A DNA stretch of 64,000 nt from Syntrophomonadaceae bacterium (GTDB lineage: Bacteria > Bacillota > Dethiobacteria > DTU022). The stretch is taken from the NCBI GenBank assembly GCA_007119615.1, contig SKPH01000028.1, forward strand, positions 4,134 through 68,133, in the 5' to 3' direction. Below, piece after piece: positions 15,739 through 34,481 of the stretch (the first letter of the stretch is position 1; every line of letters starts with the position of its first letter). Under the pieces are notes generated by a model. It did no database searches and was not told the origin of the DNA. It saw only the letters and a list, made by a program, of their open reading frames with translations. Position numbers and translations under genes: made by a program.

Positions 15739-16229
15739 TACTTCTCCTCCTGATAGCCGGTTTGATCCCCGGGAAGGTTTTCCTCGCATTCGGGTTTATC
15801 CAACAGGAGCCCGGTTATAACCGGTTTGAATTTCGGATCGTCTTTTACTCTCCGATCCCATTTGCGGATTAAATAGAAGACCAAAACCATTAAAGCAACT
15901 CCCGCCCCGACAGCCTGCAGATCCTGACTGCCCTCAAGACCAAGGGTTCCTGCTATGTAGGGCCAGATAAAAATACCGGCAACCAGGCCAGCGAGGGGCA
16001 CGATATAAAGCATGAAGGCCAGAAACAGCACCTGGCGGTCGTCCGATTCAATAACAACCCTCTGGCCTTCCTCGGCCTGAATGGGGTTATGGGCTTCAAT
16101 TAATATGTTCCGTTTACTCGAACCACTGAGAATACCGCACCTGCCGCACTGGCCGCAGATCACGTGGCGCTGCAGATTAACTGCAGCAATATCCCCCCTG
16201 GTTTCAGTTACTATCCCGTATTGATCCAC
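15738..16229 (-). CDS. rseC: RseC/MucC (SoxR-reducing system) family protein
   Basis: GIVTETRGDIAAVNLQRHVICGQCGRCG followed by 2 TM helices. Confidence 0.65.
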   Translation of the reverse strand: MDQYGIVTETRGDIAAVNLQRHVICGQCGRCGILSGSSKRNILIEAHNPIQAEEGQRVVIESDDRQVLFLAFMLYIVPLAGLVAGIFIWPYIAGTLGLEGSQDLQAVGAGVALMVLVFYLIRKWDRRVKDDPKFKPVITGLLLDKPECEENLPGDQTGYQEEK

Positions 16230-16337
16230 TTTATATCTCCTCCCACGAAGTTAAGTAAATCTTAGCATAACAGCGCAGTGCTAACAAGTAGATAAAGACT
16301 TAAGAAACAGCGTTCGGGATAGCAATAAAAATATTGC

Positions 16338-16394
16338 AACATTCAATAAGTTAAAAAAAGGTGTCTGACACCTTTTGTTAACTTATTGAATGTT
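16338..16394. repeat. 57-nt near-perfect palindrome: 17-bp inverted repeat arms flanking a 9-bp GC-containing hairpin with T-runs (bidirectional terminator-like)
   Basis: AACATTCAATAAGTTAA-aaaaaGGTGTCtgaGACACCttttg-TTAACTTATTGAATGTT. Confidence 0.6.
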
Positions 16395-16430
16395 TTGAAA
16401 AAGGGCGCTGCCCTGAGAAGGGAGCGCCCT
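16395..16430 (-). terminator. intrinsic terminator of the flx/hdr operon
   Basis: Minus strand: AGGGCGCT-cccttctcagggc-AGCGCCCTTTTTC, immediately 3' of the flxA-like stop. Confidence 0.8.
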
Positions 16431-16465
16431 GTAGTTGAATGACTTTTAAGTTATGGCCTGCGCCT

Positions 16466-17314
16466 TTAGGCGAAGGCTTCGGGTATTTCTTTTAAGACGG
16501 CGTAGCTGAATACGGGGCCGTCCTTGCACACGTACATACCGCCGGCATTACAGCGGCCGCATTTGCCGATACCGCATTTCATCCTGTTTTCCAGGGTGGT
16601 GTAGATCTGTTCATCGGAAAAGCCAAGTTTCTTCAGGTTCTCCAAAACAAAACGGATCATGATCGGCGGACCGCAGGTAATCGCAATCGTGTTTTCCGGA
16701 GAGGGGTTGAGGTCAAGCAACATCTGGGGAACAAAGCCAACGTTACCGCTCCAGTCTTCTTCTTCCACATCGATCGTCAGGTGGCAGGAAAGGTCGCTGC
16801 AACTTTCCATCTCTTCAAATTCTCCTTTGAAGCAGAGGTCACCTGAAGTGCGGGCACCATAGATCATGGTTAATCCTTCATACTGATCAAGATTTGCCCT
16901 GACATACTCTACTATGGGGCGCAGTGGCGCCTGGCCAATCCCTCCTCCGATGGTCAGGATCTTCTTACCCTGCCATTCATCGACCGGGAAACTGTTTCCA
17001 TACGGGCCGCGCACCATCATCTTATCGCCCGGCTCCAGCTGATGCAAGGCCTGGGTTACCTTACCCATGCGCATGACGGAAAAGCGCAGGAATTTGCCTT
17101 CGGTCGGAGAGCAAGAGATCGATATCATGCTTTCACCTGCACCCAGAACGCCAATCATGGCGCACTGGCCCGGCTGGTGGCTCCAGTTTTCACGCACTTC
17201 CTGATCATCAAAGACTACTTTGAAGGTTTTGATACAGCGCTCACCGTAGGTTTCAAACCAGGTTTCTTCTACGGTTGCAGTGTGGGGGATATAGGGGTTG
17301 CCGTTGGTTTTCAT
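16466..17314 (-). CDS. flxA: FAD/NAD(P)-binding oxidoreductase with C-terminal [2Fe-2S] (HydG/AsrB/PyrK-like); FlxA-like
   Basis: FNR-like fold (RFSV flavin motif, ILTIGGGIGQAPL NAD motif). C-terminal CGIGKCGRCN...C. Confidence 0.7.
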   Translation of the reverse strand: MKTNGNPYIPHTATVEETWFETYGERCIKTFKVVFDDQEVRENWSHQPGQCAMIGVLGAGESMISISCSPTEGKFLRFSVMRMGKVTQALHQLEPGDKMMVRGPYGNSFPVDEWQGKKILTIGGGIGQAPLRPIVEYVRANLDQYEGLTMIYGARTSGDLCFKGEFEEMESCSDLSCHLTIDVEEEDWSGNVGFVPQMLLDLNPSPENTIAITCGPPIMIRFVLENLKKLGFSDEQIYTTLENRMKCGIGKCGRCNAGGMYVCKDGPVFSYAVLKEIPEAFA

Positions 17315-18333
17315 AGCGCCTCCTCCACCTTCTTCAGAATTTCAACGATATCGATATTGACCGGGCAGAGGTTGATGCACCGCCCACATCCGACGCAAGC
17401 TATAACGTCAAACTTATCAACATAGTAACTGTATTTATGGCTGATCCGGTTCCGGGTCCTTTCCCGGCGGGTAGGTCGGGGATTGTGTCCCGAGGTGTGC
17501 AGAGTATATTCTCCGAACATACAAGAATCCCACATCCGGCAGCGTCTGGATTCAAAACCTTCCGTTTCGTCCTGGATGTCAAAGCAGTGGCAGGTCGGAC
17601 AGAGATAGGTACAGGTTCCACAGCCAAGGCATGATGCCGAAACGTTTTGCCAGAGAGGGTCTTCCCAAAGCCCCGGCAGTCCTTCGGGCACCCCTTCGGT
17701 TTTGACTTCACGCTTGATCTTTTTCTCTGCTTCAAGAACTAGCTTCTCTTTTTCCTTAACTGCGTCACTGTCTGCTTTCTCGAGCAGGTCACCAGCCGAT
17801 TCAAGCAGAGTTTCGCCTTTTTCAGTGAGAGCTTCGAGCAGGTAATTATCGCCGAGGTCGACCATCAGGAGGTCGAGTCCTTCAGTAGATGCGGGCCCGC
17901 CGCCGACCGAAGTGCAGAAGCAATTCAGTCCGGGATCGCTGCAGGCCAGTCCCACTACTGTAACCAGTTCGCGCCGCTTAACATAATAAGGATCGTCAAT
18001 GTCCCATCTAAATAGTTTCTCTACAATGGTCATGGCCCGCGCGTCGCATGGGCGCACACCGAGAAGTACGGTTTCGTCCTCGAGCTGAGGCTCTTCCATT
18101 TCTTCTGCGCCCAGCTGAAAGCGGTACATCGTTTCGGTTTGTGGAAAGAGCGCCTCCTTGGGCGGAACCCTTGTATTATTAAAGTCGAGGGCAGGTGTTT
18201 CACCTTCAGTTACCGGGGCAAAGCGCATCGCATCACCATCAGCCCCGGGAGCCCATAGCTTTTTACCGGCCAACTTTTCAACAAACTCAGGCCACTTTTC
18301 TTTTTTCAACAGCATCGCTGACATATCACCCAC
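17311..18333 (-). CDS. flxB: iron-sulfur protein, HydB/AsrA-like, with 2x[4Fe-4S] ferredoxin motifs; FlxB-like
   Basis: CLGCGTCTYLCP and CVGCGRCINLCP cluster motifs. 4-nt overlap with the flxA-like gene. Confidence 0.65.
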   Translation of the reverse strand: MGDMSAMLLKKEKWPEFVEKLAGKKLWAPGADGDAMRFAPVTEGETPALDFNNTRVPPKEALFPQTETMYRFQLGAEEMEEPQLEDETVLLGVRPCDARAMTIVEKLFRWDIDDPYYVKRRELVTVVGLACSDPGLNCFCTSVGGGPASTEGLDLLMVDLGDNYLLEALTEKGETLLESAGDLLEKADSDAVKEKEKLVLEAEKKIKREVKTEGVPEGLPGLWEDPLWQNVSASCLGCGTCTYLCPTCHCFDIQDETEGFESRRCRMWDSCMFGEYTLHTSGHNPRPTRRERTRNRISHKYSYYVDKFDVIACVGCGRCINLCPVNIDIVEILKKVEEAL

Positions 18334-18335
18334 CT

Positions 18336-19316
18336 CTACAGTATGAAGTCCTCAGGATCATCAGGCTTAAAGCTGGCCTGGAACGGTTCGGCCTCGGGAT
18401 CAACCCCGGGCTCGAAACCGTATTTATCCCGCACTTCCCGGGCCAGTTTGCGATTTAACCTGCCCAAAGGAATATTAGCCGGGCATACCCGCTCGCACTC
18501 ACCGCATTCGATGCAGCGGCCGGCGAGATGAAAAGCCCGGGCTATGTTGAAAGCCGTATTTTCGGAAAAGTTTACCGCACGGTTAACCCAGGTCGGGTTG
18601 AGACGATCAAGGATACAATCCTGGCAGTAGCAAAGGGGGCAAACATTACGGCAGCTGTAGCAGCGCACACATTTAGCGAACTGCTCCTCCCAGTAGGCTG
18701 CGCGCTCGTCGACATCCCTGTTTTCGATCTCTGCTACACCTTCATCTTCCACCAGCTCCCGGGTTTCTACCGGCTCACCCAGCATAACATCGCTGATAAC
18801 CGGATTTGGATAGCGGCAAAGACGGCATTTCTCAGCCAGCAGTTCATCCCTGCTTATTTCGATTTCTTCTTCACCGCGAACCAGAAGAAACCCGTCTTCA
18901 GTCCATTTTATTTCCACAGTTTCTTCCGTTTCGGGATATTTTTCAGCCAGCAGTTCAGGATCAACAACTCCCGGACAGGGGCACCCGATCACTACAACTT
19001 CTTCCCGGCCTATGCCCTTTTCTACCAGAAGTTGAGCTACCGCTCTGCTGTCGCATCCTTTAACCATAACGGCGACTTTGCGATCGTCCGCTTCCTGGCC
19101 GCGTGGAACCGGCAGTTTTTCTACCAGTGTCAGATAAGTAGCCAGGTTGGCGGTGCAGAGGGGTGAAAAGATCAACTCTGCAGCGCCGGCGGCATCTTCA
19201 ATAAAACCGGGGGCAACCCGGTAACCGTAGGAACCCTTTTTCCAACCGATAACGTATTTAACGTCCTCACGGTCCGCTACCTCCGCTGCGGTTTTTTGTA
19301 ATTGTTCCAGTTCCAT
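18336..19316 (-). CDS. flxC: iron-sulfur protein, FrhB/HydB-like N-domain plus 2x[4Fe-4S]; FlxC-like
   Basis: CVRCYSCRNVCP and CIECGECERVCP motifs. N-terminal FrhB-like region (VMVKGCDSRA). Confidence 0.65.
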   Translation of the reverse strand: MELEQLQKTAAEVADREDVKYVIGWKKGSYGYRVAPGFIEDAAGAAELIFSPLCTANLATYLTLVEKLPVPRGQEADDRKVAVMVKGCDSRAVAQLLVEKGIGREEVVVIGCPCPGVVDPELLAEKYPETEETVEIKWTEDGFLLVRGEEEIEISRDELLAEKCRLCRYPNPVISDVMLGEPVETRELVEDEGVAEIENRDVDERAAYWEEQFAKCVRCYSCRNVCPLCYCQDCILDRLNPTWVNRAVNFSENTAFNIARAFHLAGRCIECGECERVCPANIPLGRLNRKLAREVRDKYGFEPGVDPEAEPFQASFKPDDPEDFIL

Positions 19317-19331
19317 CTCTATAAACCCCTC

Positions 19332-19763
19332 CTACCAGTCGATCTGACGACGCCTGAAACCTTCAAACGGACCGGCTTCTCGTGCATCTTCAACGGTTTT
19401 TTCCACTACTTCTTTCCATTTATGTCCCTCGGAAGCAGATACCCAGCTCATATGAAAACGTCTGGGATCAACACCGATAAATTCCATCAGATCTTTAAGC
19501 ATGCCCAGGCGGCGCCTGGCATAGTAGTTGCCTTCCATGTAGTGGCAGTCCCCGGGATGGCATCCTGAAACGAGCACTCCGTCCGCGCCCTGCTGCAGAG
19601 CGTTCATCACATAGAGAGGATTTACCCGCCCGGAACACATAACCCGGATAATCTGGAGATTGGCCGGGTAGCGCTCCCTGCTTGTTCCGGCCAAATCGGC
19701 TCCGGCGTAGGAACACCAGTTGCAAAGGAAAGCTACAATGTTTGGTTCAAAGGTTGCACTCAT
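19332..19763 (-). CDS. mvhD: MvhD-type (methyl-viologen-reducing hydrogenase delta) [2Fe-2S] protein; FlxD
   Basis: IVAFLCNWCSYAGADLAG...IIRVMCSGRV...LVSGCHPGDCHY matches the MvhD signature. 4-nt overlap with hdrA. Confidence 0.85.
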   Translation of the reverse strand: MSATFEPNIVAFLCNWCSYAGADLAGTSRERYPANLQIIRVMCSGRVNPLYVMNALQQGADGVLVSGCHPGDCHYMEGNYYARRRLGMLKDLMEFIGVDPRRFHMSWVSASEGHKWKEVVEKTVEDAREAGPFEGFRRRQIDW

Positions 19764-21772
19764 TTTAAGACCCCCAATGCGGCAATCTGCGGTAAGATCT
19801 GGCGATCACGGAAAGATTTCGGTTGAATCGAATCTGACAGGCAGGCGGCCGAACATGAGCCGCAGCCTTTGCAGAGGGCCTCATTGACCCTGGCAACTTC
19901 CACCTCGTGTCCGAAGCGGTTAACGGTAACCATTTCAATAGCCGTATAGGGGCAGATGCTGACACAGAAACTGCAGCCCCTGCAGGTTGCCTCATTTACC
20001 GATGCAACCTGGGCGCCGATGGTCACCTTGCCGCGGGCCAGCGGGATCATTGCCGACGAAGCGGCACCCTTGGCCTGGGCCACCGTATCGGGAATATCTT
20101 TCGGGCCCTGGCAGCATCCGGCCAGGAAAACACCCTCTGTAGCCGTATCGACAGGCCGCAGTTTCGGGTGCGCTTCCAGGAAGAAGCGATCGGGCGACTG
20201 CGACAGCCGCAGCAGATCCATAACCTCGCGCATATCAGCGCGAGGCTCCAGGCCAACCCCCAAAACTACCAGATCGACTTCGTCTTCCAGCGGCGTGGCT
20301 GTCAGGGTGTCTTCAACCTTGACTACAAGCTTGTCACCACGCTTAAAGATTTCGGATGGGTTTCCACGGATGTAGCGGACGTTTTCACGGCGGACCCGAT
20401 CGTAAAACTCTTCGAAGCCCTTGCCGAAGGCCCGGACATCCATGTAGTATACCCTGATGTTAGCATCAGGCATTTTATCCCTGAGCAAGTGAGCCTGCTT
20501 GGCCACATACATACAGCAAACCCTTGAGCAGTATTCGTTACCGACACTTTTATCCCGGGAGCCGACGCACTTTATAAAAGCAATCTCTTTCGGTTCGATT
20601 TCTTCTTTACCGTTAAAGATCTTCACTTTTCCGCCGGTCGGACCCGATGCGGAAACAAGCCTTTCCATCTCCATACCGGTGATCACGTTGGGATAGTCGG
20701 CATAGCCGTATTCAGGTTTGCGCGAAGCATCGAAAGTATCAAATCCGGTCGCCACGATAACCGCACCGACTTTAAATTCAACCATTTCATCCTGCTGCTC
20801 AAAATTGATTGCTTCAGCTCCGCAAACTTCCTGGCATTTGGGGTTTTTACCGCATTTGCCCTTGCTGAGGAAAAGGCAGTTTTCGGCGTCAATGGTATAC
20901 TTGGCCGGAACCGCCTGGGGGAAGGGCAAATATATTGCCGAGCGTTTACCCATACCCTGGTCGAATTCGCTTGGAAAACGATCCTTAACCCGGCATGCCG
21001 CGGCACAATCGCCGCAGCCGGTGCACTTGTCAAAATCTACATAACGTGCTTTTTTGCGCACTTTTACATCGAAATTGCCGATAAAACCGGTAATCTCCTC
21101 AACTTCAGAGTAGCTCAGCAGCTCAATATTGGGGTGGCTGGCACAGTCGACCATTTTCGGGGTCAGAATACAGGCTGAACAGTCGAGGGTCGGAAATGTT
21201 TTATCAAGCTGGGCCATACGTCCGCCCACTGAAGGAGTTTTCTCCACCAGATAAACCTTGAACCCGGCATCAGCAATATCAAGCGAAGCCTGAATCCCCG
21301 CAATACCCGCCCCGATTACCAGGGCGGCAGGTTCAGCGTCTACTTCTTTTGATTCAAGCGCCTCCAGCAGCCTTGCCTTGGCGACAGCTGCTCCAACAAG
21401 CTTTTTCGCCTTCGCTGTGCCCTCTTCAATTTCTTCATGGACCCAGGAGCATTGTTCCCGAATATTGGCCATCTCAAGGAAAAAGGGGTTCACGCCCGCT
21501 TCCTTGATTGCTTTCCTGAAAGTCGGCTCGTGCATACGCGGCGAGCAGGAAGCGACAACAACCCGGTTCAATCCCAGTTCCCTGATATCATTTTTAATCA
21601 GGACCTGTCCGGGATCGGAACACATGTACGAATAGGTCCGCGCCACTTCCACATTCGGCAGTTTTTGCGCATATTCTGAAACTGCATCCACATCTACTGT
21701 CGACGAAATATTAATTCCGCAGTGACAGACATAGACGCCTACTTTCGGTTTTTCCGTCATCTGGCTTTTCAT
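19760..21772 (-). CDS. hdrA: heterodisulfide reductase subunit A (HdrA-like FAD/Fe-S flavoprotein)
   Basis: N-terminal Cys cluster, GAGIAGIQASLDIADAG FAD motif, inserted and C-terminal 4Fe-4S ferredoxin motifs (CTGCGDCAAAC, CRGCSFCVSICP, CKGCGSCSAAC). No in-frame TGA. Confidence 0.85.
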   Translation of the reverse strand: MKSQMTEKPKVGVYVCHCGINISSTVDVDAVSEYAQKLPNVEVARTYSYMCSDPGQVLIKNDIRELGLNRVVVASCSPRMHEPTFRKAIKEAGVNPFFLEMANIREQCSWVHEEIEEGTAKAKKLVGAAVAKARLLEALESKEVDAEPAALVIGAGIAGIQASLDIADAGFKVYLVEKTPSVGGRMAQLDKTFPTLDCSACILTPKMVDCASHPNIELLSYSEVEEITGFIGNFDVKVRKKARYVDFDKCTGCGDCAAACRVKDRFPSEFDQGMGKRSAIYLPFPQAVPAKYTIDAENCLFLSKGKCGKNPKCQEVCGAEAINFEQQDEMVEFKVGAVIVATGFDTFDASRKPEYGYADYPNVITGMEMERLVSASGPTGGKVKIFNGKEEIEPKEIAFIKCVGSRDKSVGNEYCSRVCCMYVAKQAHLLRDKMPDANIRVYYMDVRAFGKGFEEFYDRVRRENVRYIRGNPSEIFKRGDKLVVKVEDTLTATPLEDEVDLVVLGVGLEPRADMREVMDLLRLSQSPDRFFLEAHPKLRPVDTATEGVFLAGCCQGPKDIPDTVAQAKGAASSAMIPLARGKVTIGAQVASVNEATCRGCSFCVSICPYTAIEMVTVNRFGHEVEVARVNEALCKGCGSCSAACLSDSIQPKSFRDRQILPQIAALGVLK

Positions 21773-21806
21773 CCTCCCGCGAAGATTGGCCCCGGTATTA
21801 AACCGA

Positions 21807-22781
21807 TTACCCTTTTAATTCTTTCAGTTTCTCGGCTAACTTGGGCACAACCTTGAACATGTCATCGACAATGGCATAGTCGGCTACTGTAAAAATCGGG
21901 GCTTCGGGATCTTTGTTGATCGCCACCACTGTCTTGGCCCCTTTCATTCCGGCAAGATGCTGGAAAGCGCCGGATATGCCCATAGCAATATAGAGTTTCG
22001 GCTTGACAGTCTTGCCGGAAGTACCGACCTGACGGTCATGAGGTATCCATCCGGCATCTGTCGCCGCCCTGGAACCGGCAACATCGGCCTTGATCGCAGC
22101 GGCCAGCTCTTCGATTACAGGCAGGTTTTTATCTTCTTTGAGTCCGCGGCCGATGGCAATCAATATATCGGACTGCGTAATATCGACATCGCCGACTTCG
22201 GCTTCAATATATTCAACAAACTTGCGGTACGGAATATCTTCCTTCAAGGGTGACTCAATTTTTTCCACATCCGCTCCTGCTGAGGACTCCGGCGCTTCAA
22301 CAGCGCCTTCCCTGAATGTAACCAGGTAGGTATCGGCAGGCTTGAAAGCTACAGTGGCATTAACCTTACCGGAATAAAGCTGGCGTGTCACTTTCAGAAC
22401 ATCACCTTCGTATTCGAGGCCAATAGCTTCAGTAACCAGAGGCATTTTTTTCTCAACAGCCAGGGCAGGCATAAAATCGACCCCCTGGGCAGTGTGCCCG
22501 GTCATCAACAGGGCAGGTTTAAGATCATCGATCAGCGCCGACAATACTTTCTGATATTTTTCGGCATTGAAGTTTTCGAATAAGGGATCGTCAACCACCA
22601 TAACTTTAACCCCGTATCCGGCAATCTTTTTAGCCATTTCATCCATCCCGCTGCCAATTAACAGCACAACGGCTTCGCCGCCCATATTTCCGGCAAGCCC
22701 GGGGGCTACAGCCAGCATTTCGAACGAAATATCTCTTAGCGCACCCTGGCGGTGTTCGGCTAAAACTAAAACGTTACCCAT
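21807..22781 (-). CDS. etfA: electron transfer flavoprotein alpha subunit
   Basis: EtfA domains I-III with FAD-binding C-terminus ([19 protein letters not shown]). 34-nt gap to hdrA containing only a GGGAGG RBS and no terminator. Confidence 0.85.
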
Positions 22782-23569
22782 TATACCAAGCCTCCCTTAA
22801 CCAATATGGATGCCAGTTTTTCTGCTTTTTCTTCCGGTTCACCCTCAAGGAATTCAGCGGTTGATTCCACTTCGGGAATATAAAGTTTTTCTATGACAAC
22901 CTGGGATGCATCGGATCCGACTGAATCCGGATCAACACCGATATCATCGAGGCTGACAACTTTTAATTCTTTTTTCTGTGCCTGGCGGATACCACGAATC
23001 GGTGCATAACGGGGTTCATTAATCCCGGTCTGGATGGTCAGGACAGCGGGCAGTTCAACTTCAACTGATTCCAGCATCCCGCCTTCAAGTTCGCGATGAA
23101 CCGTGACTTTACCGTCGCCAACTTCCACTTTCTTGACCATCGTAGCATGGTTGACTCCCAGTTCTTCAGCCAGGGCCGCGCCGGTGGCCATATGCCCGTC
23201 ATCAACAGCCACACAGCCGGTCATGATCAGATCAAACTCGTGGCCCTTGATTGCTCCGGCCAGTGTTTTCGCCACCATCAGCGGATCATGGCCTGCAATG
23301 CGATCATCCTCCACCCGGACCGCCTGATCGCAACCCTTGGCCATGGCCATACGGATCATTACATCAGACTTTTTCGGCCCGATCGAAAAGACGGTAACCT
23401 CTCCGCCCTGCGCTTCCTTAATCAATACCGATTCTTCAACTGCATAGTTGTCGGAATCGTTGATATCGAAGGAAAAACGACTGTCATCGACCGATATGCC
23501 GTCCGGATTCACCTTGACTTCCGCTTCGGAAGTGTCGGGCACATACTTGATACAAACCAGGGTTTTCAT
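22781..23569 (-). CDS. etfB: electron transfer flavoprotein beta subunit
   Basis: MKTLVCIKYVPD start is typical of EtfB. 1-nt overlap with etfA. Confidence 0.85.
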   Translation of the reverse strand: MKTLVCIKYVPDTSEAEVKVNPDGISVDDSRFSFDINDSDNYAVEESVLIKEAQGGEVTVFSIGPKKSDVMIRMAMAKGCDQAVRVEDDRIAGHDPLMVAKTLAGAIKGHEFDLIMTGCVAVDDGHMATGAALAEELGVNHATMVKKVEVGDGKVTVHRELEGGMLESVEVELPAVLTIQTGINEPRYAPIRGIRQAQKKELKVVSLDDIGVDPDSVGSDASQVVIEKLYIPEVESTAEFLEGEPEEKAEKLASILVKGGLV

Positions 23570-23604
23570 TCGTTCTTTCCACCTCCTGCTAAATTATAAA
23601 ATGC

Positions 23605-24741
23605 TTAAGCTTCAATATGCTCACCCAGAAGCTCCATGATTTCCGCTACGCGCATCTCTTCTTCAAAGCCGAGCCCTTTCATTGAATCTTCCAGGGTCAT
23701 AACGCAGAAAGGACAGGCGACGGCGACAATATCGGCCTGCAAATCTTTTGCATCTTTAATCCGCGTGTCGGCCAGCCGCTCCTTCTTCGATTCAGACTCC
23801 ACCCACATCTTACCGCCGCCTCCTTCACAGCATAGGCTGCGTTCGCGGCTTCGGTCAAACTCAACCACTTCCACTCCGGGAATACTTTTCAATAATTCCC
23901 GGGGCTCGTCGTAGACATCTCCCTGTTTGCCAAGGTAGCATGGATCGTGGTAAACAATCCTCTTTTGTAAATCGCCTTTCCAGGTTAGCTTGCCTTCGTG
24001 AAGCAGTTCAACCAGGAGCTGAGTATAGTGAAGAATCGGAGTCTTGAGATCAGGATAGTGAGTTTTGTAGGTGGTAAAACAGTGCGGTGAAAGGGTTACA
24101 ATTCGCTTTGCGGAATATTCATTTAAATACTCCGTATTGTCTTCAACCAGCATTTCAAACAGCCCTTCCTCGCCCAGGGTGAAAACTTCACTGCCGCAGC
24201 AGCTCTCTTCCTCGGGCAAAAAGGCGTAGTCAATGCCGGCCTTGTTTAACAGCCTGACCATATTTTTAGCAATAGCCTGGACCCGTGGGTCGTATGCAAT
24301 CGTGCAGCAGACAAAAAAGAGGTTCTCTACCTCAACCCCGGGTTCGGCAATCTTTACATCAAGTCCTTCCATCCAATCCGAACGGGCCGCCCTGGATTTC
24401 TCCCAGGGGTTTCCTTCGAGGAGAACACTCTGCAGAGCATCGCGCACGGTTGGTTCGACCTTGCCGCTTTCGACTATCATGGAGCGGAGTCCGATTAAAA
24501 CCTCCAGCGGCTTTAAGCCCTTGGGACAGCGTACGGCACAGGTGTGGCAGGCTGTACAATCCCAAATTTCGGCCAGCCTGGCCAACTCGTCAAGCTTTTC
24601 TTCGTTGTAGGCATCGTAAACGAATTGGCGTACATTCAGATTAGCCCGCACAGTAACCGGGCAACCGCCGGTACAACGACCACATTGGATGCAACCAAGC
24701 AGATCATACTTTTCGGTAAAGGTCTGGATTTCGGTACTCAT
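23605..24741 (-). CDS. soluble HdrD/GlcF-like Fe-S oxidoreductase (N-terminal 2x[4Fe-4S], two CCG domains = HdrC+HdrB fusion)
   Basis: CIQCGRCTGGCP and CTACHTCAVRCP motifs. Two CCG-type Cys-rich domains (CCGSE..., CCEGGGG). No TM helix. Start at MSTEIQ has a GGGGT RBS; the ORF track start is 24759. Confidence 0.75.
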   Translation of the reverse strand: MSTEIQTFTEKYDLLGCIQCGRCTGGCPVTVRANLNVRQFVYDAYNEEKLDELARLAEIWDCTACHTCAVRCPKGLKPLEVLIGLRSMIVESGKVEPTVRDALQSVLLEGNPWEKSRAARSDWMEGLDVKIAEPGVEVENLFFVCCTIAYDPRVQAIAKNMVRLLNKAGIDYAFLPEEESCCGSEVFTLGEEGLFEMLVEDNTEYLNEYSAKRIVTLSPHCFTTYKTHYPDLKTPILHYTQLLVELLHEGKLTWKGDLQKRIVYHDPCYLGKQGDVYDEPRELLKSIPGVEVVEFDRSRERSLCCEGGGGKMWVESESKKERLADTRIKDAKDLQADIVAVACPFCVMTLEDSMKGLGFEEEMRVAEIMELLGEHIEA

Positions 24742-25010
24742 CAGCATACCCCGCATCATTTAGTGATTATTTAACTTCCAGGCTCCCGGCAAACCCAATC
24801 ACTTTCGCCGGATAAAAATTCAAAATAGATCCCCGCAGGCGCCACCTCCCGGTTCTTTGATGATAATTATCAGACAATTGCGATATATATAGCCTATCTT
24901 AGTAAATTTCGACATTTCCTTTAATTCTTCCTGCCTGAATTTTTAAATTCATAAATATTTAACATAATCAACTATTAACTTAATAAATTGATTGACGGTC
25001 CGGTTAAAAC

Positions 25011-26060
25011 TCAAGCTATAACGATTCTGCCGGCCGGTCCCTCTGTGATACGGCCGATAGTCTGACCGCTTACTCCGTTTTCCTGCAGCACAGTTAAATA
25101 TTGTTTATGCCTGTCCGGGGGAACAGCAACCAGCAGCCCGCCCGAGGTTTGCGGATCAGACAAAATGATCAGAGCGTCATCTTTCTTTTCGGGTTCGCCA
25201 CTCCAGGTTATATACGGCCTCATATAATCGAGGTTGCGGTAAGCCCCCCCGGGGATCATGCCCATTGCTGCCATCTCTTCAACAGCAGGATACAGGGGCA
25301 CTTTTTGATAATCTATTTCGGCAGCGCTTATGCTGGAAAGCAGCATTTCATAAAGATGACCCAGCAAACTAAATCCGGTTACATCGGTACAGGCCGATAC
25401 ACCGACCCTGATCATCGATTCGGAAGCCGCGGCACTGAGCGCTTTCATGCCGTTGATTACCTCTTCGGCATCTTTTTCCGTAATTATTTCACCTTTAAGT
25501 GCGGTAGCGATAATTCCCGTTCCGATCGGCTTGGTCAAAACGAGAAGGTCATCCGGGTTTGCGCCTTCGGAGGTAACCATCTTGTCGATGTCGACCACAC
25601 CGGTAACTGAAAGCCCGTACTTGGGTTCCGGGTCTTCAACACTGTGACCACCAACCAGGGCCGCTCCGGCTTCGATAATTTTGTCGCAGCCGCCACGTAA
25701 AATTGACTCCATCACTTCAAGCGGCTGGCACGATACCGGGAAACAGATAATATTTAAGGCGGTAAGCGGTTTTCCACCCATGGCGTAAACATCACTAAAC
25801 GCATTGGCCGCAGCGATTTGGCCGAACGTGTAAGGGTCGTCAACAATGGGCGTGAAGAAGTCCACCGTCTGAACCAGAGCCTGGTTTTCCGATATACGGT
25901 AAATACCGGCATCGGAAAAGTGCTGTTCGCGGTTCAAATAGTCCGGATCGTCTGTAGCGGGCAAATGGCGCAGAACCTGCGCCAGGGCCTCGGGCCCGAT
26001 TTTAGCCGCTCAGCCGGCACTCGTAGTCATGGCAGTCAGACGTATCTCATCAAAACTCAT
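25011..26060 (-). CDS. selD: selenide, water dikinase (selenophosphate synthetase), selenoprotein with in-frame UGA (Sec) at 26010..26012
   Basis: The ORF track stops at TTG 25964. Reading upstream through TGA gives MSFDEIRLTAMTTSAG-U-AAKIGPEALAQVL, homologous to the E. coli SelD N-terminus (Cys17 position). ATG 26058-26060 has a GGAAGGTGA RBS. Confidence 0.85.
25967..25997 (-). promoter_or_regulatory. putative bacterial SECIS element (two adjacent hairpins 13-45 nt 3' of the UGA)
   Basis: Minus strand after UGA: gcggcuaaaaucGGGCCcgaGGCCCu-GGCGCAGguuCUGCGCC. Confidence 0.55.
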
Positions 26061-26064
26061 CGGC

Positions 26065-27993
26065 TCACCTTCCTTTCCTCTGCCGCTCAAGTTTCAATGC
26101 CACCCGGTGATCTTCAACCCGCCTGGTCATCCTGGCCTGGTCAAAATGCTCAAGCAGGGCCTGGGCGAACTTTCGGGAGCTCCCGGTGATATCCCTGAAC
26201 TGGGCCAGGGTCAGGGTTTCGTTTTCGGCAAAGTGCCCCCTCAGCAGGTTTAAAGCTTCATCGTAGGCATCGCTGTGAAAGTAGAGCTCTTCAGTTATTT
26301 TGATCAGACTTTCTTGCGCCAGAAGGTAATTTATAAGTTCATCCCTGCGCCCCGGATCTGCTCCCGCTTTTTCCAGGGCATTTTTTACCGCGGGAGGCTG
26401 GAACCAACCCGACCGGTAAATTTCAGCTAAACTGTCAAGCCGCTTTTTATCTTCGGACGATGGCTCGGGCTTAAAATGATAAAGCGACACCAGGTCGCCT
26501 TTTGATACAGCGAGCTTTCTTTCCCGGAGGCTGCCCAGCAGGGCATCGTAATCGCGCTGACTGAATGCGGAAGGTAAAAACCCTTTTAACTGGGCCCGTG
26601 AAATTCCCGGCGATAGTGGATATTTTTTATGATATTTATCCAGTTGGGCCAGTAAACCTGCTTCATATTCCTTCAGAACCGTGGTAATAATAAATGCGTT
26701 TCCCATCTTTTGCACCAGCCCCTGTGATGCAAGTTCCCCAAGGATTGAATTTACTTTTCCCCGGTCCAGGCGGGTTTCCCCGGCCAGCAGGTCACTGTCG
26801 GCTGCAACGAGTTCTTCCAGTTTGCGTCTCACGAAAGCGGAATCCCCTCCCTCGGTCGGCGCCTGTCTTAATTCATTTAAGCGTTCAATAACCTCGGTCC
26901 GAAAACGTCGATGCCTATGGGGATAGGGGTCGAGTACCAGCCCACCGCCAATAGTAGTCATCGGCGAATAGGATCGGATTACAAACGGATCGCCGCGTTC
27001 GGCAACTACGGGGCGCTCTAAACGACACTGCACAAGGGCGCTATCTCCGGGGCGCAGCTCTTCGCTGTCGAGCAGTAAAAGCCGGCCCACGGTACGGGCC
27101 GTGCCCAAAAAAAAGTGGACCGGGTCTAGATTCTTAAGGCGACGCGGAGCCCGCTCCAGGAGCTGAACTGAAACATCAATTAGATCGGTCTGGCGATAGT
27201 AGCCAGGATTGCTGATCACGCTGCCTCTTATAATCCGATCTTTTTCCAACCCTGACAGGTTCAGGGCAACCCTGGCACCCGCTTTTACTTCCCTGACATC
27301 CGCATCATGAACCTGGATGTTGCGCACCCTTGCTTCAGCGCCGGGGGGAACAACCGATACTGTGTCGCCGACGCGAACAGAACCCTGAATCAGGGTCCCT
27401 GTTACCACGGTTCCAAAACCGGCAATAACGAAAGAACGGTCTACAGGCAGGCGAAGGGGTCCGGAAGCATTGCGCGGCTCCAGGTCGGCAGTCATAGAAT
27501 CGATCAACTCTTTGAGCTCTTCTATCCCCTGTCCCTGAATGGCTGATACGGAGTGAACCGGCGCACCTTCCAAAAATGTTCCCTGCAGCTCTTCTGCTAT
27601 TTGCTCCCGGACCAGCTCCCGCCATTCTTCTTCAACCAGATCGATCTTGGTAATAACAACAAGGCCTTTTTGAGTTCCGAGCAGCTCCAGGATGTCGAGA
27701 TGTTCCCTGGTCTGAGGCATTACTCCCTCGACAGCATCGACAACCAGCATTACCAGGTCCATACCGGCCGCACCGGCAAGCATATTGTGTATAAATCGCT
27801 CGTGACCGGGCACATCGATAACTCCCGCCAATCTTCCGCCCGGTAGCCGGAAAGGGGCAAAACCGAGGTCGATTGAAATGCCTCGTTCTTTTTCTTCCTG
27901 AAGCCGATCGGTGTCAATGCCGGTTAGCGCCTTAATCAGCACTGTTTTGCCGTGGTCAACATGGCCGGCTGTGCCTATTATTAACTGCTCCAA
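26065..27993 (-). CDS. selB: selenocysteine-specific translation elongation factor
   Basis: [14 protein letters not shown]-domain plus C-terminal winged-helix region. TTG start with AAGGAGTG RBS; the ORF track start 28035 is over-extended. Confidence 0.85.
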
Positions 27994-28015
27994 GTTGCTG
28001 CCACTCCTTGTGTCG

Positions 28016-29449
28016 CTAGTTCCCGTCAGTTTCAAAAGCGATGCGTACTGCCTCGATCAAAGCATTTTCCTGGTCTTCGAAGATGGTTCGCGGATCAAAA
28101 AACAGGGTATCCTGATGGAGACGCAAGATTACAGGGGGATCGCCACGGCGTAGTTTCTCAACCAGTTCAGCAGGATGTATGCCACCCCCTGAAAGCTTTA
28201 CCGCCGCCAGGTAAGTGGGCAGCTCCGCCATGGGCAGGGCCCCGCCTCCTACCCTGGATATACCTTCTGCTACAAATACGTTATCCGTTCCGAATATTCC
28301 GGAGAGGCCTCCGGCAAGCGCCCGGGCGCGCTTGTTAAGGGTCTCTTTATCAGCGGTAAGCATCCGCCAGACCGGTATCTCTTTTATTGCGGTTTCCTCC
28401 TCGAGGTAGAGGCGCAGGGTTGCCTCAAGGGCGGCAATTGAAAATTTATCGACGCGCAGGGTCCTGGCCAGCTGGTTGGCGCGGATATATGATATCAGGT
28501 CTTTGCGTCCGACAATTATTCCGGCCTGAGGGCCGCCTAGCATTTTATCCCCGCTAAAGGTAACCAGATCGGCTCCGGAGGCGATACTGTCCTGAACCCG
28601 GGGCTCCGCAGGGAGGTTATATTTATTAAGATCGATAAATACACCGCTGCCAAGATCTTCAATTAGAAGCAGGCTGTATTTATGGGCCAGGGTAGAAAGA
28701 TCTTCTGTATCTACCGCTGCTGTAAAACCGATCATATGGTAATTACTGGTATGGACCTTAAGCAAGGCAGCGGTATTTTCATTCACCGCTGCTTCATAAT
28801 CGCGGAGGTATGTTTTGTTGGTTGTTCCGACCTCTACCATTGAAGCGCCGCTGGCGGCCATAATCTCAGGGATGCGAAATGATCCGCCAATTTCGACAAG
28901 CTGGCCCCTCGATACAACCACTTCCCTGCCTGAGGCTGTTGCATTCAGGGCAAGAAACACCGCTGCTGCATTGTTATTCAAAACAACGGCCGCCTCGGCT
29001 CCGCTCAATTCACAAAGAAGCTCTTCAAGGTGTTCCTGGCGTGAACCGCGGTTGCCGCTTTCCAGGGAAAGCTCGAGATTGTTGTAATTTTCCGCTATGG
29101 ATGTCATGGCCTTAACCGCCGCTTCGGGAAGCGGAGCTCGTCCAAGGTTGGTGTGGATGATAATTCCCGTAGCGTTGATCAGAGCTCTCAGGTTTGATCC
29201 GGCTTTTTTTTCTGCCATCGCAGCGGCCTCCAGGGCCAGCCCGGCAGGGGAGAGATCAATTCTCCCGGCTGCATCTTCTGCACCGACTTGATCTGTCAAC
29301 CGGCGGCGGTAAGAATCTATTGTTTCCTGGGCCGAATGCAGGACCACACGGCGAGGTAACCGCTGCAGGAGTTCCTCCAGCACCGGCTCTCGGAGCAGCC
29401 GATCAACCGCCGGCAATTCACGAAGCAGCGACTGATACTTGCCCACCAT
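28016..29449 (-). CDS. selA: L-seryl-tRNA(Sec) selenium transferase
   Basis: Full-length SelA-like (PLP fold, ...[15 protein letters not shown]...). Confidence 0.85.
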
Positions 29450-33420: not shown

Positions 33421-34481
33421 GCCTTCACCACCCTGAAAGCCCTGATGGCCATCTTTTTTACTGCTTCTTTTTGGTCCCGAGGGTAATCGGCCTGTTCAAG
33501 TTTTTCGTTAAACTGCTTAAAGAGATCATCTTCCAGGATATGCTGAACATCGTAAAATTCCAGGGCTGGTTCTTCGGCAAAACGGGATCCGGCCCTTTCC
33601 ATAATCCCTGCCGCCAGCTCATTTTCATCCATGCCGAGGGCTGAGCCATTAAACAGACCGCGGACAGTAAGGATCACTTTTGCATTCCGGTGCAGCTCCT
33701 GCATTTTATTATCAAGGAGAGAAAGAGGATCTTCCAGGTTGAAGGGGTCAAGCGATATAACCAGTTCTTCGAAGTAATGCGTGTCCAGAGGTATTTCTAC
33801 CGGATCCTCACCCGGCGCAACCAGGTTTGCGGCCCTCCTGCCGGCCTCCCGCCTGGTAACTGCGACCGGAGAGCCGGAATAGATAAATAATCCCCCGCCG
33901 GGTATCTGCCAGCTCGTATACCGGGAATGGAAATGCCCCGCCAGAACATACTGAAGGGGTAGCGATTCGAAGTAAGAGAGGCGGACCGGCATGTATCTCA
34001 GGTCGCCTTCATCTCCCAGATCTTCGCGGGAGAAAAATGCATCCAGGAGCTCTCCGTGAAAAAGCAGAAAGTTCGCTTGATCAGGATTCATGCGCCCGGC
34101 CATATCCCGCAAGCGGCTTACCATTCTGCCACCGCTCAAACGCTCGTAAGGAAGGCCCCAGATTGCCGCATCGTCGATGTAAACCGGCTCTTCCCAGTTG
34201 GTGATTACTGTTACATTCTCACCAAAGTAGAGACCACTGCGGTAAGACCTGTAATCGTGGTTTCCCGGAAGGATTATTGTCATGAAATCTGCGCCGCCGA
34301 GCTCGGATCGCAGCCGGGCCCTGAGCTTCTCTGCTTCAATATTATGATCAAAAAGATCGCCGGCTATTACCAGGGCTGAAACCTGATGCTTCCTGGCGAT
34401 TTCCACGAGTTCACCCAGGGCATCCCATCGTTCAGCAGCAGTTTCTGTTAAATGTAAATCAGCGGTATGCAGCAGCTTCAA
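33411..34481 (-). CDS. SbcD/Mre11-like metallophosphoesterase (YhaO/SbcF-type)
   Basis: LLHTADLHL, IAGDLFDH, LPGNHD motifs. TTG start. 10-nt overlap with the ATPase gene. Confidence 0.75.
   Translation of the reverse strand: MKLLHTADLHLTETAAERWDALGELVEIARKHQVSALVIAGDLFDHNIEAEKLRARLRSELGGADFMTIILPGNHDYRSYRSGLYFGENVTVITNWEEPVYIDDAAIWGLPYERLSGGRMVSRLRDMAGRMNPDQANFLLFHGELLDAFFSREDLGDEGDLRYMPVRLSYFESLPLQYVLAGHFHSRYTSWQIPGGGLFIYSGSPVAVTRREAGRRAANLVAPGEDPVEIPLDTHYFEELVISLDPFNLEDPLSLLDNKMQELHRNAKVILTVRGLFNGSALGMDENELAAGIMERAGSRFAEEPALEFYDVQHILEDDLFKQFNEKLEQADYPRDQKEAVKKMAIRAFRVVKACS

Follow-up and report, generated by a model that had tools for sequence, protein, structure and literature searches.

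Gene content and transcription signals of the operon

The locus is situated in a window of 64,000 nucleotides (the whole stretch of DNA that was analysed) from an uncultured alkaliphilic Firmicute of the class Dethiobacteria. Between positions 16466 and 24759, eight genes are densely spaced on the minus strand in the 5' to 3' order CCG - etfB - etfA - hdrA - mvhD - flxC - flxB - flxA, with a leader upstream and terminator-like structures downstream:

24760..25010, minus strand: leader/promoter region upstream of the CCG gene, a 250-nt AT-rich gap after selD
23605..24759, minus strand: gene for a soluble CCG protein of the EtfD/EMO type, with an HdrC-like 2x[4Fe-4S] domain and two CCG domains
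22781..23569, minus strand: etfB, ETF beta, probably of the non-bifurcating type (Pfam ETF, 130 bits)
21807..22781, minus strand: etfA, ETF alpha with an alpha-FAD domain (Pfam ETF and ETF_alpha)
19760..21772, minus strand: hdrA, canonical full-length HdrA of the bifurcating type (NCBIfam HdrA2, 888 bits)
19332..19763, minus strand: mvhD (flxD), [2Fe-2S] adaptor (Pfam FlpD/MvhD, 179 bits; NCBIfam VhuD, 116 bits)
18336..19316, minus strand: flxC, FrhB/FdhB-like Fe-S subunit (Pfam FrhB_FdhB_C and Fer4)
17311..18333, minus strand: flxB, sulfhydrogenase-beta-like Fe-S subunit, ShyB/HydB/AsrA (Pfam Fer4_22, 115 bits; NCBIfam ShyB, 216 bits)
16466..17314, minus strand: flxA, NAD(P)H-binding flavoprotein with a [2Fe-2S] site, HydG/AsrB-like (Pfam NAD_binding_1 and DHODB_Fe-S_bind)
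16347..16430, minus strand: tandem terminator-like hairpins downstream of flxA (folding energy and U-tract)

The tight linkage and the gene composition that an earlier, sequence-only reading had proposed both stand. All ORFs are present with gaps of at most 35 nt, the successive junctions from the CCG gene to flxA being +35, -1 (an overlap), +34, -4 (the 4-nt overlap of mvhD with hdrA), +15, +2 and -4 nt, and profile searches of each ORF (Pfam and NCBIfam) agree with every domain assignment. Downstream of flxA, where a strong terminator had been claimed, a first hairpin (from 16398 or 16402 to 16430; -21.9 kcal/mol, z = -7.2) is indeed followed by UUUUU; a second one lies next to it (16347-16385; -16.5 kcal/mol, z = -6.5) and is picked up by the consensus scan as well. 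The etfA-hdrA spacer, on the other hand, had been described as free of hairpins, but it contains one of 5 bp, with no U-tract after it. Inside the operon, neither promoter-like matches (5, with 7.7 expected from shuffles) nor terminator-like matches (13, with 10.2 expected) rise above chance. The eight genes are predicted to be co-transcribed.

In the leader, the blocks AATAGTT, AAATATTTA.GAATT.AAAAAT, GCAGGA, ATGTCGAA, AATTGTC and GGAGGTG are kept across 14 related loci, as is a 5-bp stem, CCGGC...GCCGG. No Rfam match is found in 24760-25010, nor a sigma-70 consensus at the threshold of the scan. Kyte-Doolittle analysis of the eight proteins (19-residue mean, maximum at most 1.66) gives no evidence of a membrane helix, the highest peak being the FAD-binding motif of HdrA.

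On balance, it seems probable that these genes encode one soluble, HdrA-centred bifurcating or confurcating oxidoreductase that joins a conventional one-FAD ETF to NAD(P)H and ferredoxin.

Recurrence of the Etf-HdrA association

Sixty-five related loci of the Dethiobacteria type (EtfA identity 63-88%) are available for comparison. The same eight-gene order occurs in all 38 that are long enough, the others being cut by contig ends, and the arrangement is therefore no accident of one genome. Moreover, etfA and hdrA are adjacent in 57 of 57 loci, 26-53 nt apart. In metagenome bins labelled as Cloacimonadota, Neomarinimicrobiota and WOR-3, the clusters run etfB-etfA-hdrA-CCG, so that hdrA separates etfA from the CCG gene. 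Immediately before etfB, these clusters have three acyl-CoA dehydrogenase genes, and they are flanked by ptb, meaB and an acyl-CoA mutase gene. HdrA is joined by different NAD(P)H modules: two loci (L066 and L076) have a GltD/NfnB-like insertion in an HdrA of 1110 aa, and a third (L072) has HdrA in split pieces with NuoE-like and NuoF-like domains, while the Dethiobacteria window has Flx instead. Such swapping is what an Etf-CCG-HdrA core that acts as the constant functional unit would lead one to expect. Synteny thus gives strong backing to the earlier proposal that Etf and HdrA/Flx form one system, a pairing of which no description for the Dethiobacteria lineage was found in the searched literature. 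Dethiobacteria HdrA is about 57% identical to a methanogen HdrA, compared with about 51% to the HdrA that accompanies Etf in the other phyla. Since it is nearer to the methanogen protein, the two Etf-HdrA associations may be independent inventions and not one orthologous complex.

The nearest acyl-CoA dehydrogenase gene (44099-45343) lies 20 kb off, among housekeeping genes, and no gene for an ETF-dependent dehydrogenase is found in the operon itself. The earlier suggestion of such an enzyme as substrate-side partner gains plausibility from the three dehydrogenase genes next to etfB in the other phyla.

It could be imagined that two independent systems merely share a promoter: EtfAB with a soluble EtfD-like oxidoreductase, and HdrA-MvhD-FlxCBA using hdrBC from elsewhere. 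The Etf-CCG pair can occur without HdrA in its cluster, as at three loci (L065, L077 and L080) with etfBA-CCG and no neighbouring hdrA. Furthermore, in the described relatives 'Ca. Contubernalis alkaliaceticus' and 'Ca. Syntrophonatronum acetioxidans', the hdrB and hdrC genes are situated away from hdrA, and these separately encoded proteins could in principle serve such an HdrA. In the literature, too, an ETF-linked Fe-S oxidoreductase (PMC5371069) and Flox-Hdr (PMC7382037) are handled separately. Such a division is nevertheless rather unlikely in view of the order that does not vary over this span of EtfA identities, the insertion of hdrA between etfA and the CCG gene in other phyla, and the CCG protein itself, which possesses the HdrC-like domain needed for contact with HdrA and for which, devoid as it is of a membrane or quinone part, no separate acceptor is evident.

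Properties of the subunits

HdrA aligns over its whole length with 5odc_A of the solved HdrABC-MvhAGD complex (829 bits, ~57% identity). All cysteine clusters visible in this alignment are conserved, and K425 (CCMYxxK motif) aligns to K409 of 5odc_A. The best solved relatives of FlxC are the FdhB proteins of Fdh-Hdr supercomplexes (9t1s_M, 1.6e-29; 8rvu_E, 2.4e-24; 7bkb_E, 2.1e-23), a likeness that counts for the single-complex model because FdhB is a subunit of solved Fdh-MvhD-Hdr supercomplexes. FlxB matches the beta subunit of P. furiosus sulfhydrogenase I over its full length (9nez_B, 1.3e-49), and FlxA matches the gamma subunit (9nez_C, 1.5e-66) as well as NCBIfam HydG (228 bits).

For the CCG gene, ATG 24741 (378 aa) is a more probable start than 24759, since a conserved GCGGGGT followed by 7 nt precedes the former and many homologues measure 374-380 aa. 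Its product combines a Pfam 4Fe-4S dicluster (Fer4) with two CCG domains (114 bits). Residues 65-377 have M. smegmatis EtfD as closest solved relative (9ojn_A, E 1.2e-50), and residues 20-116 match HdrC (5odc_C, E 1.3e-13), whereas HdrB is reached with an E-value of 8.7e-4 only. A Foldseek search with the AF2 model (pLDDT mostly 85-95 in the CCG part, low confidence in the N-terminal 125 residues) ranks EtfD first (3.5e-19), LutA second and HdrB third. The N-terminal cluster cysteines are C23/26/29/33 and C68/71/74/78. The second CCG site is complete (C274, C310/C311, C349/C352). The first retains five cysteines (C151/C152, C187/C188, C227), and in the first CxxC motif (SPHC) the leading Cys is replaced by S224, a Ser that is invariant in every member of this CCG family. 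The soluble fusion of HdrC and HdrB types claimed by the sequence-only reading is thus borne out, and so is the absence of hdrB and hdrC: no separate HdrB or HdrC is found in the operon or in the whole 64-kb window. By sequence, the protein is related to mycobacterial EtfD, though it has no membrane anchor, and is not a canonical HdrB; it reads as a predicted ETF-docking subunit rather than a heterodisulfide reductase. EtfD takes electrons from ETF (PMC13083937).

The composition of the downstream half, which is that of Flx-HdrA, also allows for a classical Flx-Hdr NAD(P)H:disulfide/ferredoxin oxidoreductase, in which the CCG protein would reduce a thiol-disulfide carrier and EtfAB would be an alternative second donor. 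The complete second CCG motif, the five cysteines of the first and the presence of HdrB among the Foldseek matches are consistent with this, and a disulfide acceptor is assumed in the Flx-Hdr literature (PMC6687939), DsrC being proposed for FlxABCD-HdrABC. We consider it unlikely. The match to EtfD far exceeds that to HdrB, the first CxxC is SxxC throughout the family, and the conserved neighbourhood contains no dsrC-like or other thiol-carrier gene. Also, the CCG and Etf genes of other phyla stand beside acyl-CoA dehydrogenases, not sulfur genes, and in the related fusion BamD, which binds ETF, the heterodisulfide site is blocked (bioRxiv 10.64898/2026.04.10.717634).

EtfB was compared with five solved EtfBs, three of them bifurcating. 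Its top PDB match is Methylophilus W3A1 ETF-beta (1o94_C, 2e-54), which is 60 bits nearer than the best-scoring bifurcating EtfB (CarD, 2e-36; C. difficile, 2e-32; A. fermentans, 1e-29). The W3A1 ETF binds AMP. EtfB has neither 'GGADT' nor 'GRQAIDGDTAQVG', the motifs common to the three bifurcating proteins, which we take to mark the beta-FAD site; it shows 'AGHDPLMVAK' and 'TGCVAVDDGHMATG' where these have 'GGADTWATS' and 'GRQAIDGDTAQVG'. Because of the missing motifs and the W3A1 relationship, EtfB is probably not bifurcating, and the earlier description of EtfAB as a bifurcating scaffold has to be given up. EtfA aligns over its full length to W3A1 EtfA (2e-57), and its alignment to CarE starts at CarE residue 71, the N-terminal extension of CarE having no counterpart. 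That EtfAB might be a group 2 Etf oxidising NADH, with two bifurcating modules in series, is very improbable: the EtfB N-terminus 'VCIKYVPDT' resembles the 'VCxKQVPDT' of bifurcating EtfBs, and CarE and W3A1 EtfA give about the same score with EtfA, but to the motifs and scores of EtfB are added the failure to find an N-terminal ferredoxin domain in EtfA and the presence in the operon of FlxA as a subunit dedicated to NAD(P)H entry.

A putative electron path and its precedents

In the single HdrA-centred oxidoreductase favoured here, FlxA (FAD and [2Fe-2S]) would oxidise NAD(P)H and pass electrons through the Fe-S subunits FlxB and FdhB-like FlxC and the MvhD adaptor to the FAD of HdrA. With EtfB non-bifurcating by motif and nearest relative, HdrA has the only candidate for a bifurcating flavin, and bifurcation would take place there. 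The low-potential electron would leave through the ferredoxin domains of HdrA to free ferredoxin. The high-potential electron would enter the EtfD-like subunit, travel along its HdrC-like clusters and then its two CCG-domain clusters, and arrive at the alpha-FAD of EtfAB. The CCG protein is the presumed HdrA partner because the window holds no HdrB or HdrC and its N-terminal domain is HdrC-like. In solved Hdr complexes, an HdrC-type domain is the element that wires HdrB to HdrA. ETF would exchange electrons reversibly with acyl-CoA dehydrogenases or another ETF-dependent flavoenzyme, so that the net reaction would be NAD(P)H + Fd(ox) + ETF(ox) <-> NAD(P)+ + Fd(red) + ETF(red). That the proteins assemble physically, which way the electrons run, which nucleotide is used and what ETF reacts with are all inferences. 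Run backwards, the complex would spend reduced ferredoxin to lift electrons from beta-oxidation to NAD(P)H, with no need for a membrane.

The path has elements of several known systems. HdrA (~57%), MvhD and FdhB-like FlxC recall the methanogen complexes MvhADG-HdrABC and FdhAB-MvhD-HdrABC (5odc, 7bkb, 8rvu, 9t1s), but the operon has no catalytic subunit of a hydrogenase or formate dehydrogenase and no HdrB or HdrC, and its host is a bacterium without CoM/CoB heterodisulfide. From FlxABCD-HdrABC, the NADH dehydrogenase/heterodisulfide reductase of Desulfovibrio vulgaris (Ramos et al. 2015), the Dethiobacteria operon differs in having the hdr side first, which is the usual order in Firmicutes (hdrCBA-flxDCBA). 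Both systems have a FlxA flavoprotein with [2Fe-2S], FlxB and FlxC, a FlxD of the MvhD type, a full-length HdrA encoded alongside these and a proposed NADH-driven bifurcation to ferredoxin and a high-potential acceptor; the Dethiobacteria operon differs further in that one EtfD-like CCG fusion stands for separate HdrB and HdrC, etfBA lies between the CCG gene and hdrA, and no link to DsrC is visible.

EtfD, EMO, 'Efd' and FadF are membrane ETF:menaquinone oxidoreductases (PMC13083937; HdrF, PMC2702500; PMC5109826). EtfD, the top match of the CCG protein in sequence and fold, shares its two [4Fe-4S] clusters and two CCG domains, and EtfD systems likewise have etfBA as neighbours, with acyl-CoA dehydrogenases in other phyla. 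However, the CCG protein is without the transmembrane, quinone-reducing part and the C-terminal tail, has 'CCG' and Ser224 at the first CCG site as opposed to 'CTG' and Cys581, and would have HdrA as electron partner instead of menaquinone. With Bcd-EtfAB, CarCDE, Ldh-EtfAB and FixABCX/EtfABCX, the operon has the involvement of an ETF in common and, in other phyla, acyl-CoA dehydrogenases. The overall chemistry may even be identical to that of Bcd-EtfAB (NADH, ferredoxin, enoyl-CoA/acyl-CoA couple), except that EtfB has no beta-FAD motifs and bifurcation would occur at the HdrA flavin.

The closest precedent is the BamDEF-ETF part of class II benzoyl-CoA reductase, described in a 2026 preprint (bioRxiv 10.64898/2026.04.10.717634). 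There, an MvhD-like adaptor feeds an HdrA-type subunit, and BamD, an HdrBC fusion with a Cys-to-Ser-modified non-cubane cluster, is the exit for the high-potential electron, which it hands to a docked non-bifurcating ETF (~+16 mV). Both BamDEF(GHI) with BamOP and the operon have an NADH module, an MvhD-like adaptor and an HdrA-type bifurcating flavin in series, and the CCG protein resembles BamD, compared by description only, in the HdrBC-type fusion and the Cys-to-Ser change. BamOP is the ETF that docks at the BamD clusters, and the same docking is proposed for EtfAB. The differences lie at the ends: the operon lacks a BamBC tungsten module, so that free ferredoxin is presumably the acceptor of the low-potential electron, and the input module is Flx (sulfhydrogenase beta/gamma-like and FdhB-like) in place of HydBC-like BamGHI. 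Furthermore, its HdrA is a single canonical copy, compared with the fused permuted dimer of Bam, and the ETF genes lie within the operon.

Organisation of the operon

The sequence-only reading had proposed a single eight-gene operon on the minus strand, and all eight ORFs were located:

23605-24759, minus strand, CCG gene (ORF)
22781-23569, minus strand, etfB (ORF)
21807-22781, minus strand, etfA (ORF)
19760-21772, minus strand, hdrA (ORF)
19332-19763, minus strand, mvhD (ORF; 4-nt overlap with hdrA)
18336-19316, minus strand, flxC (ORF)
17311-18333, minus strand, flxB (ORF)
16466-17314, minus strand, flxA (ORF)

The successive junctions from the CCG gene to flxA measure +35, -1, +34, -4, +15, +2 and -4 nt. 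An AT-rich intergenic region of 250 nt (24760-25010, minus strand) separates the CCG gene from the upstream selA-selB-selD cluster. Past flxA, a terminator-like hairpin (16402-16430; -21.9 kcal/mol, z = -7.2) is followed by UUUUU, and a second downstream hairpin reaches -16.5 kcal/mol. Inside the cluster, promoter- and terminator-like consensus matches showed no excess over shuffled sequence, in a scan that overlooked the main terminator on account of the bulge in its hairpin. The etfA-hdrA spacer holds GGGAGG and a 5-bp hairpin that lacks a U-tract. The eight genes appear to be co-transcribed. The CCG start at ATG 24759 (MMRGMLM...) is probably too early; the true start would be ATG 24741 (378 aa), for which the conserved GCGGGGT was placed as ribosome-binding site, and homologues are called at 374-384 aa. 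Horizontal transfer of the operon was rejected on its unremarkable GC content, and a selenoprotein among the eight genes on the lack of in-frame stops.

In the leader preceding the CCG gene, sequence blocks are conserved across 14 related loci. GGAGGTG, about 90 nt 5' of the CCG start, is one of them, and another is a 5-bp stem, CCGGC...GCCGG, whose loop varies. Comparison of the related loci revealed no covariation for this hairpin, and no Rfam family was assigned to it; a search of 16200-26200 against Rfam likewise gave no credible match. A further leader element, the 12-nt palindrome TGATAATTATCA, is not kept in relatives. The leader may have a regulatory role or be bound by a protein.

As to the flanks, selA (28016-29449) and selB (26065-28035) precede selD (25011-26060, minus strand), which lies directly upstream of the operon. 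With an in-frame TGA at 26010-26012 (motif 'TSAG*AAK'), selD runs to about 349 codons and encodes a selenoprotein itself; a plain ORF list gives only the 317-aa part after the TGA. An RseC/MucC-family gene (PF04246; 15738-16229, minus strand), followed by asd, comes next after the terminator in the majority of related loci that extend this far. RseC-type proteins have been linked to Rnf/Rsx ferredoxin-dependent systems, and a functional link of this gene with the operon is possible.

Identity of the subunits

Profile searches upheld every assignment of the sequence-only reading, with both Pfam and NCBIfam. HdrA scores 888 bits on the NCBIfam HdrA2 model and aligns over residues 7-664 with the HdrA of the HdrABC-MvhAGD complex (5odc_A; 829 bits, about 57% identity). 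All its cysteine motifs are conserved in this alignment, and K425 is aligned with K409 of 5odc_A, which is, according to the literature, the lysine at the HdrA flavin. By these alignments, HdrA is classed as canonical and full-length, with a bifurcating-type architecture. MvhD scores 179 bits on FlpD. FlxA combines NAD_binding_1 and DHODB_Fe-S_bind domains, scores 228 bits on the HydG model and matches the gamma subunit of P. furiosus sulfhydrogenase I (9nez_C, 1.5e-66), while FlxB, with a Fer4_22 domain, matches the beta subunit (9nez_B, 1.3e-49). FlxA and FlxB correspond to the gamma and the beta subunit of the Pyrococcus enzyme, respectively, a pair that forms an NAD(P)H-oxidising diaphorase. 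FlxC has FrhB_FdhB_C and Fer4 domains, and among solved structures it is nearest to the FdhB subunits of methanogen Fdh-MvhD-Hdr supercomplexes (9t1s_M, 1.6e-29), which fits a subunit passing electrons to MvhD.

EtfB is closest to the ETF-beta of Methylophilus W3A1 (2e-54), with solved bifurcating EtfBs at 2e-36 to 1e-29. In a joint alignment, three solved bifurcating EtfBs (CarD, C. difficile and A. fermentans) share 'GGADT(W/L)ATS' and 'GRQAIDGDTAQVG', motifs that presumably line the second-FAD (beta-FAD) site. The EtfB of the operon has 'AGHDPLMVAK' and 'TGCVAVDDGHMATG' at those positions, like the non-bifurcating W3A1 and Paracoccus ETFs; the W3A1 protein binds AMP, not a second FAD, and is not known to bifurcate. 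EtfA lacks the N-terminal extension found in CarE and LctC. From the EtfB motifs, the W3A1 likeness and the missing extension, we read EtfAB as a conventional one-FAD, non-bifurcating ETF. The proposal that EtfAB provides a second bifurcating scaffold beside HdrA is not supported.

The CCG protein (384 aa) has two CCG domains behind an N-terminal dicluster domain that matches HdrC (5odc_C, 1.3e-13). Among solved proteins, M. smegmatis EtfD is the closest by a wide margin (9ojn_A, 1.2e-50; residues 65-377 versus 409-737), as against only 8.7e-4 for HdrB, and the aligned part of EtfD is its soluble region only. A Foldseek search with an AF2 model likewise placed EtfD first (3.5e-19), followed by LutA and then HdrB. 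The model is confident for the CCG half and of low confidence for residues 1-125, where the HdrC-like assignment therefore rests on sequence. Cysteines were mapped on the published EtfD ligands (PMC13083937). The eight dicluster cysteines are all conserved, and the second CCG site has its full set (C274, C310, C311, C349, C352). The first site comprises C151/C152, C187/C188, S224 and C227; 'CCG' is retained here, whereas it is lost in the first site of EtfD, and the first cysteine of its CxxC is replaced by serine (SPHC). This serine is invariant among close homologues and in the relatives from other phyla. No membrane helix is evident in the CCG protein (maximum 19-residue hydropathy 1.28), nor any hydrophobic helix in the eight operon proteins, and a membrane-bound complex was rejected for this reason.

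Recurrence of the gene cluster

A search with EtfA, restricted to one genome per species, returned 80 loci. Dethiobacteria-type loci make up 65 of these (EtfA identity 63-88%), labelled Syntrophomonadaceae, Bacillota or Dethiobacter; many are metagenome bins with names suggestive of samples from soda-lake sediment, serpentinite and digesters. The full eight genes are colinear in 38 of them and the remaining loci end at contig ends. In this group, etfA is followed by hdrA in 57/57 cases, with a gap of 26-53 nt, and the flanks are mostly preserved, selB-selD upstream and rseC-asd downstream. This conserved synteny strengthens the idea of a larger complex of Etf with HdrA/Flx, an idea that had been linked to two bifurcating scaffolds, a part that is not strengthened. 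The 3.3-Mb record FZPS01000036.1 has the look of a complete genome but consists of short contigs joined by 100-N spacers, and it yielded the CCG-etfB adjacency only.

The other 15 loci, with 44-52% EtfA identity, bear the labels Cloacimonadota, Neomarinimicrobiota, WOR-3 or 'Armatimonadota', or are unclassified. The order here is etfB-etfA-hdrA-CCG, hdrA being placed between etfA and the CCG gene, and all Etf and CCG proteins of these loci carry the motif variants of the window. One locus (L070) reads ptb, ptb, three acyl-CoA dehydrogenases, etfB, etfA, hdrA, CCG, meaB, acyl-CoA mutase. Three genes of acyl-CoA dehydrogenase size precede the cluster in seven loci (L064, L067, L070, L074, L066, L076 and L065), their identity being Pfam-confirmed in L070. 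HdrA itself takes several forms: it stands alone at about 650-660 aa (L064, L067, L070, L074), reaches 1110 aa where a GltD/NfnB-like NAD(P)H domain is inserted (L066, 9431-12763; L076, 10975-14310), or is split into pieces with NuoE-like and NuoF-like domains (L072, 2086-7057). The 1110-aa Etf-linked form resembles the protein named HdrL in the D. autotrophicum genome paper. In L065, L077 and L080, etfBA-CCG occurs with no hdrA. Some bin labels are doubtful: the HdrA of L064, labelled 'Armatimonadota', is 94% identical to that of L070, and L034 is labelled 'Candidatus Limnocylindrales', yet its EtfA is 81% identical to that of the window.

The HdrA of the window is closer to methanogen HdrA than to the Cloacimonadota type, so that the Etf-HdrA association may have more than one origin. 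Such a repeated origin would count for a functional association, not against it.

Proposed electron route and related systems

HdrC-like domains link HdrB to HdrA in solved complexes, and a separate HdrB or HdrC was found neither in the operon nor in the 64-kb window. The CCG protein carries such an HdrC-like domain, and the protein most closely related to it among those characterised oxidises ETF. Together with the non-bifurcating type of the Etf and the NAD(P)H entry that the operon encodes, this is most simply read as a route from NAD(P)H through bifurcation at HdrA to ferredoxin and ETF. Electrons of NAD(P)H would pass over FlxA, FlxB/FlxC and MvhD to the FAD of HdrA, the site of bifurcation. 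From there, the low-potential electron would go to ferredoxin and the high-potential electron through the CCG subunit to ETF, which would connect onward to acyl-CoA dehydrogenases. In the opposite direction, reduced ETF and reduced ferredoxin would together reduce NAD(P)+, a soluble disposal of beta-oxidation electrons. NAD(P)H-driven bifurcation is estimated to be exergonic from potentials of -320 mV for NADH and about -450 to -500 mV for ferredoxin, as quoted in the literature, and a value near 0 mV for ETF, which comes from the preprint on BamDEF-ETF (bioRxiv 10.64898/2026.04.10.717634). Established directly are the gene content, the motifs and the synteny; the assembly of the proteins, the direction of flow and the partner of ETF in Dethiobacteria are what we infer here.

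Could the operon simply place two unrelated systems under one promoter? The etfBA-CCG loci without hdrA and the hdrBC genes elsewhere in related genomes would agree with this, but the gene order is invariant, hdrA is sandwiched between etfA and the CCG gene in other phyla, and an anchor-less EtfD would be left without any acceptor; we consider it improbable. A genuine disulfide reductase of the FlxABCD-HdrABC kind, to which Etf would be an additional donor, is disfavoured by the EtfD likeness of the CCG protein, its invariant SxxC and a context of acyl-CoA dehydrogenases, not of sulfur metabolism. A bifurcating Etf is not supported, the motifs being absent from EtfB.

In several aspects, the route through HdrA to ETF is reminiscent of described systems. 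The Flx-Hdr clusters are common in syntrophs and fermenters, in Firmicutes presumably in the order hdrCBA-flxDCBA, and we know of no high-potential acceptor for them outside sulfate reducers. With FlxABCD-HdrABC the operon shares FlxA (FAD/NAD(P)H, [2Fe-2S]), two HydB/FrhB-kind Fe-S subunits (FlxB and FlxC, by their domains and nearest solved relatives), and FlxD (MvhD) together with a full-length HdrA in one operon. Instead of separate HdrB and HdrC, however, it has a single EtfD-type HdrC+CCG fusion, and its conserved neighbourhood contains no dsrC-like gene. With EtfD/EMO the CCG protein shares the HdrBC-homologous soluble region of 2x[4Fe-4S] and two CCG domains, and also the association with etfAB and acyl-CoA dehydrogenases, as the CCG gene adjoins etfB in the window and the clusters of other phyla contain acyl-CoA dehydrogenases. 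The membrane domain of EtfD, five transmembrane helices reaching the quinone pool (PMC13083937), is absent from it. The operon thus falls outside FlxABCD-HdrABC (no HdrB/HdrC), EtfD/EMO (no membrane domain) and group 2 bifurcating EtfAB (no EtfB motifs), and plausibly works as a hybrid of the first two. In class II benzoyl-CoA reductase, the MvhD-like BamF feeds the HdrA-type BamE, and BamD, in which HdrBC are fused and a non-cubane cluster has a Cys-to-Ser change, is the high-potential exit from which the electron reaches a docked non-bifurcating ETF at about +16 mV (bioRxiv 10.64898/2026.04.10.717634). This BamDEF-ETF wiring is the same as that proposed for the operon; the tungsten AOR subunit BamB and BamC belong to the reductase, whereas no AOR-family gene occurs in the operon or its conserved flanks. 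The parts are all of known kinds and the wiring has this precedent, so that the operon is not a new category.

In the literature searched (full text), neither a description of an Etf-HdrA-Flx operon nor names such as 'Etf-Hdr' or 'EtfAB-HdrA' were found. Work on the nearest described organisms discusses only the HdrA/MvhD of the acs cluster and does not describe the operon. The 'ETF-linked Fe-S oxidoreductase' and 'Flox-Hdr' are handled as separate systems (PMC5371069, PMC7382037), and PMC10397141 contains nothing on Etf motifs.

The operon appears to encode its own acceptor, an ordinary ETF reached via an EtfD-like subunit, and it offers a testable answer to what Flx-Hdr-type modules reduce without DsrC. 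Two routes connecting acyl-CoA/enoyl-CoA redox with other carriers are known: Bcd-EtfAB, in which Etf itself bifurcates, and the membrane-bound EMO/EtfD, leading to the quinone pool. If the model is right, there would be a third, soluble and HdrA-based route to and from NAD(P)H and ferredoxin, and the ETF-as-acceptor principle of benzoyl-CoA reductase would extend to a general design in several phyla. This bears on the balance of redox carriers in anaerobes living under energy limitation, for example soda-lake and digester Dethiobacteria and Cloacimonadota. More tentatively, with a chance that we put a little short of even, the operon could be the Firmicute representative of a widespread and so far unnamed modular family in several phyla. 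Its core would be acyl-CoA dehydrogenase, non-bifurcating EtfAB, a soluble EtfD-like CCG protein and HdrA, combined with swappable NAD(P)H modules (Flx, GltD-like, NuoEF-like); HdrA, not Etf, would bifurcate, and ETF would be the physiological high-potential partner. Such a family would connect beta-oxidation electrons with the pools of NAD(P)H and ferredoxin independently of a membrane, and would identify the acceptor that is missing for Flx-Hdr-type complexes where an organism lacks DsrC.

Elsewhere in the window, the lone acyl-CoA dehydrogenase gene to which the sequence-only reading had pointed (44099-45343, minus strand) lies between homoserine dehydrogenase and NAD(P)HX repair genes, a context that shows no tie to the operon; its best models, acryloyl-CoA reductase and glutaryl-CoA dehydrogenase, score far under their cut-offs. 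A 773-aa ORF (31099-33420, minus strand), with no Pfam match at E <= 1e-5, overlaps a calcineurin-like phosphoesterase gene (33411-34481) at the latter's end, and the two look like an SbcCD-type nuclease-ATPase pair. Finally, 2457-5414 (plus strand) encodes a 985-aa protein with three lamin-tail domains, a CHB_HEX_C domain and a CotH kinase domain.
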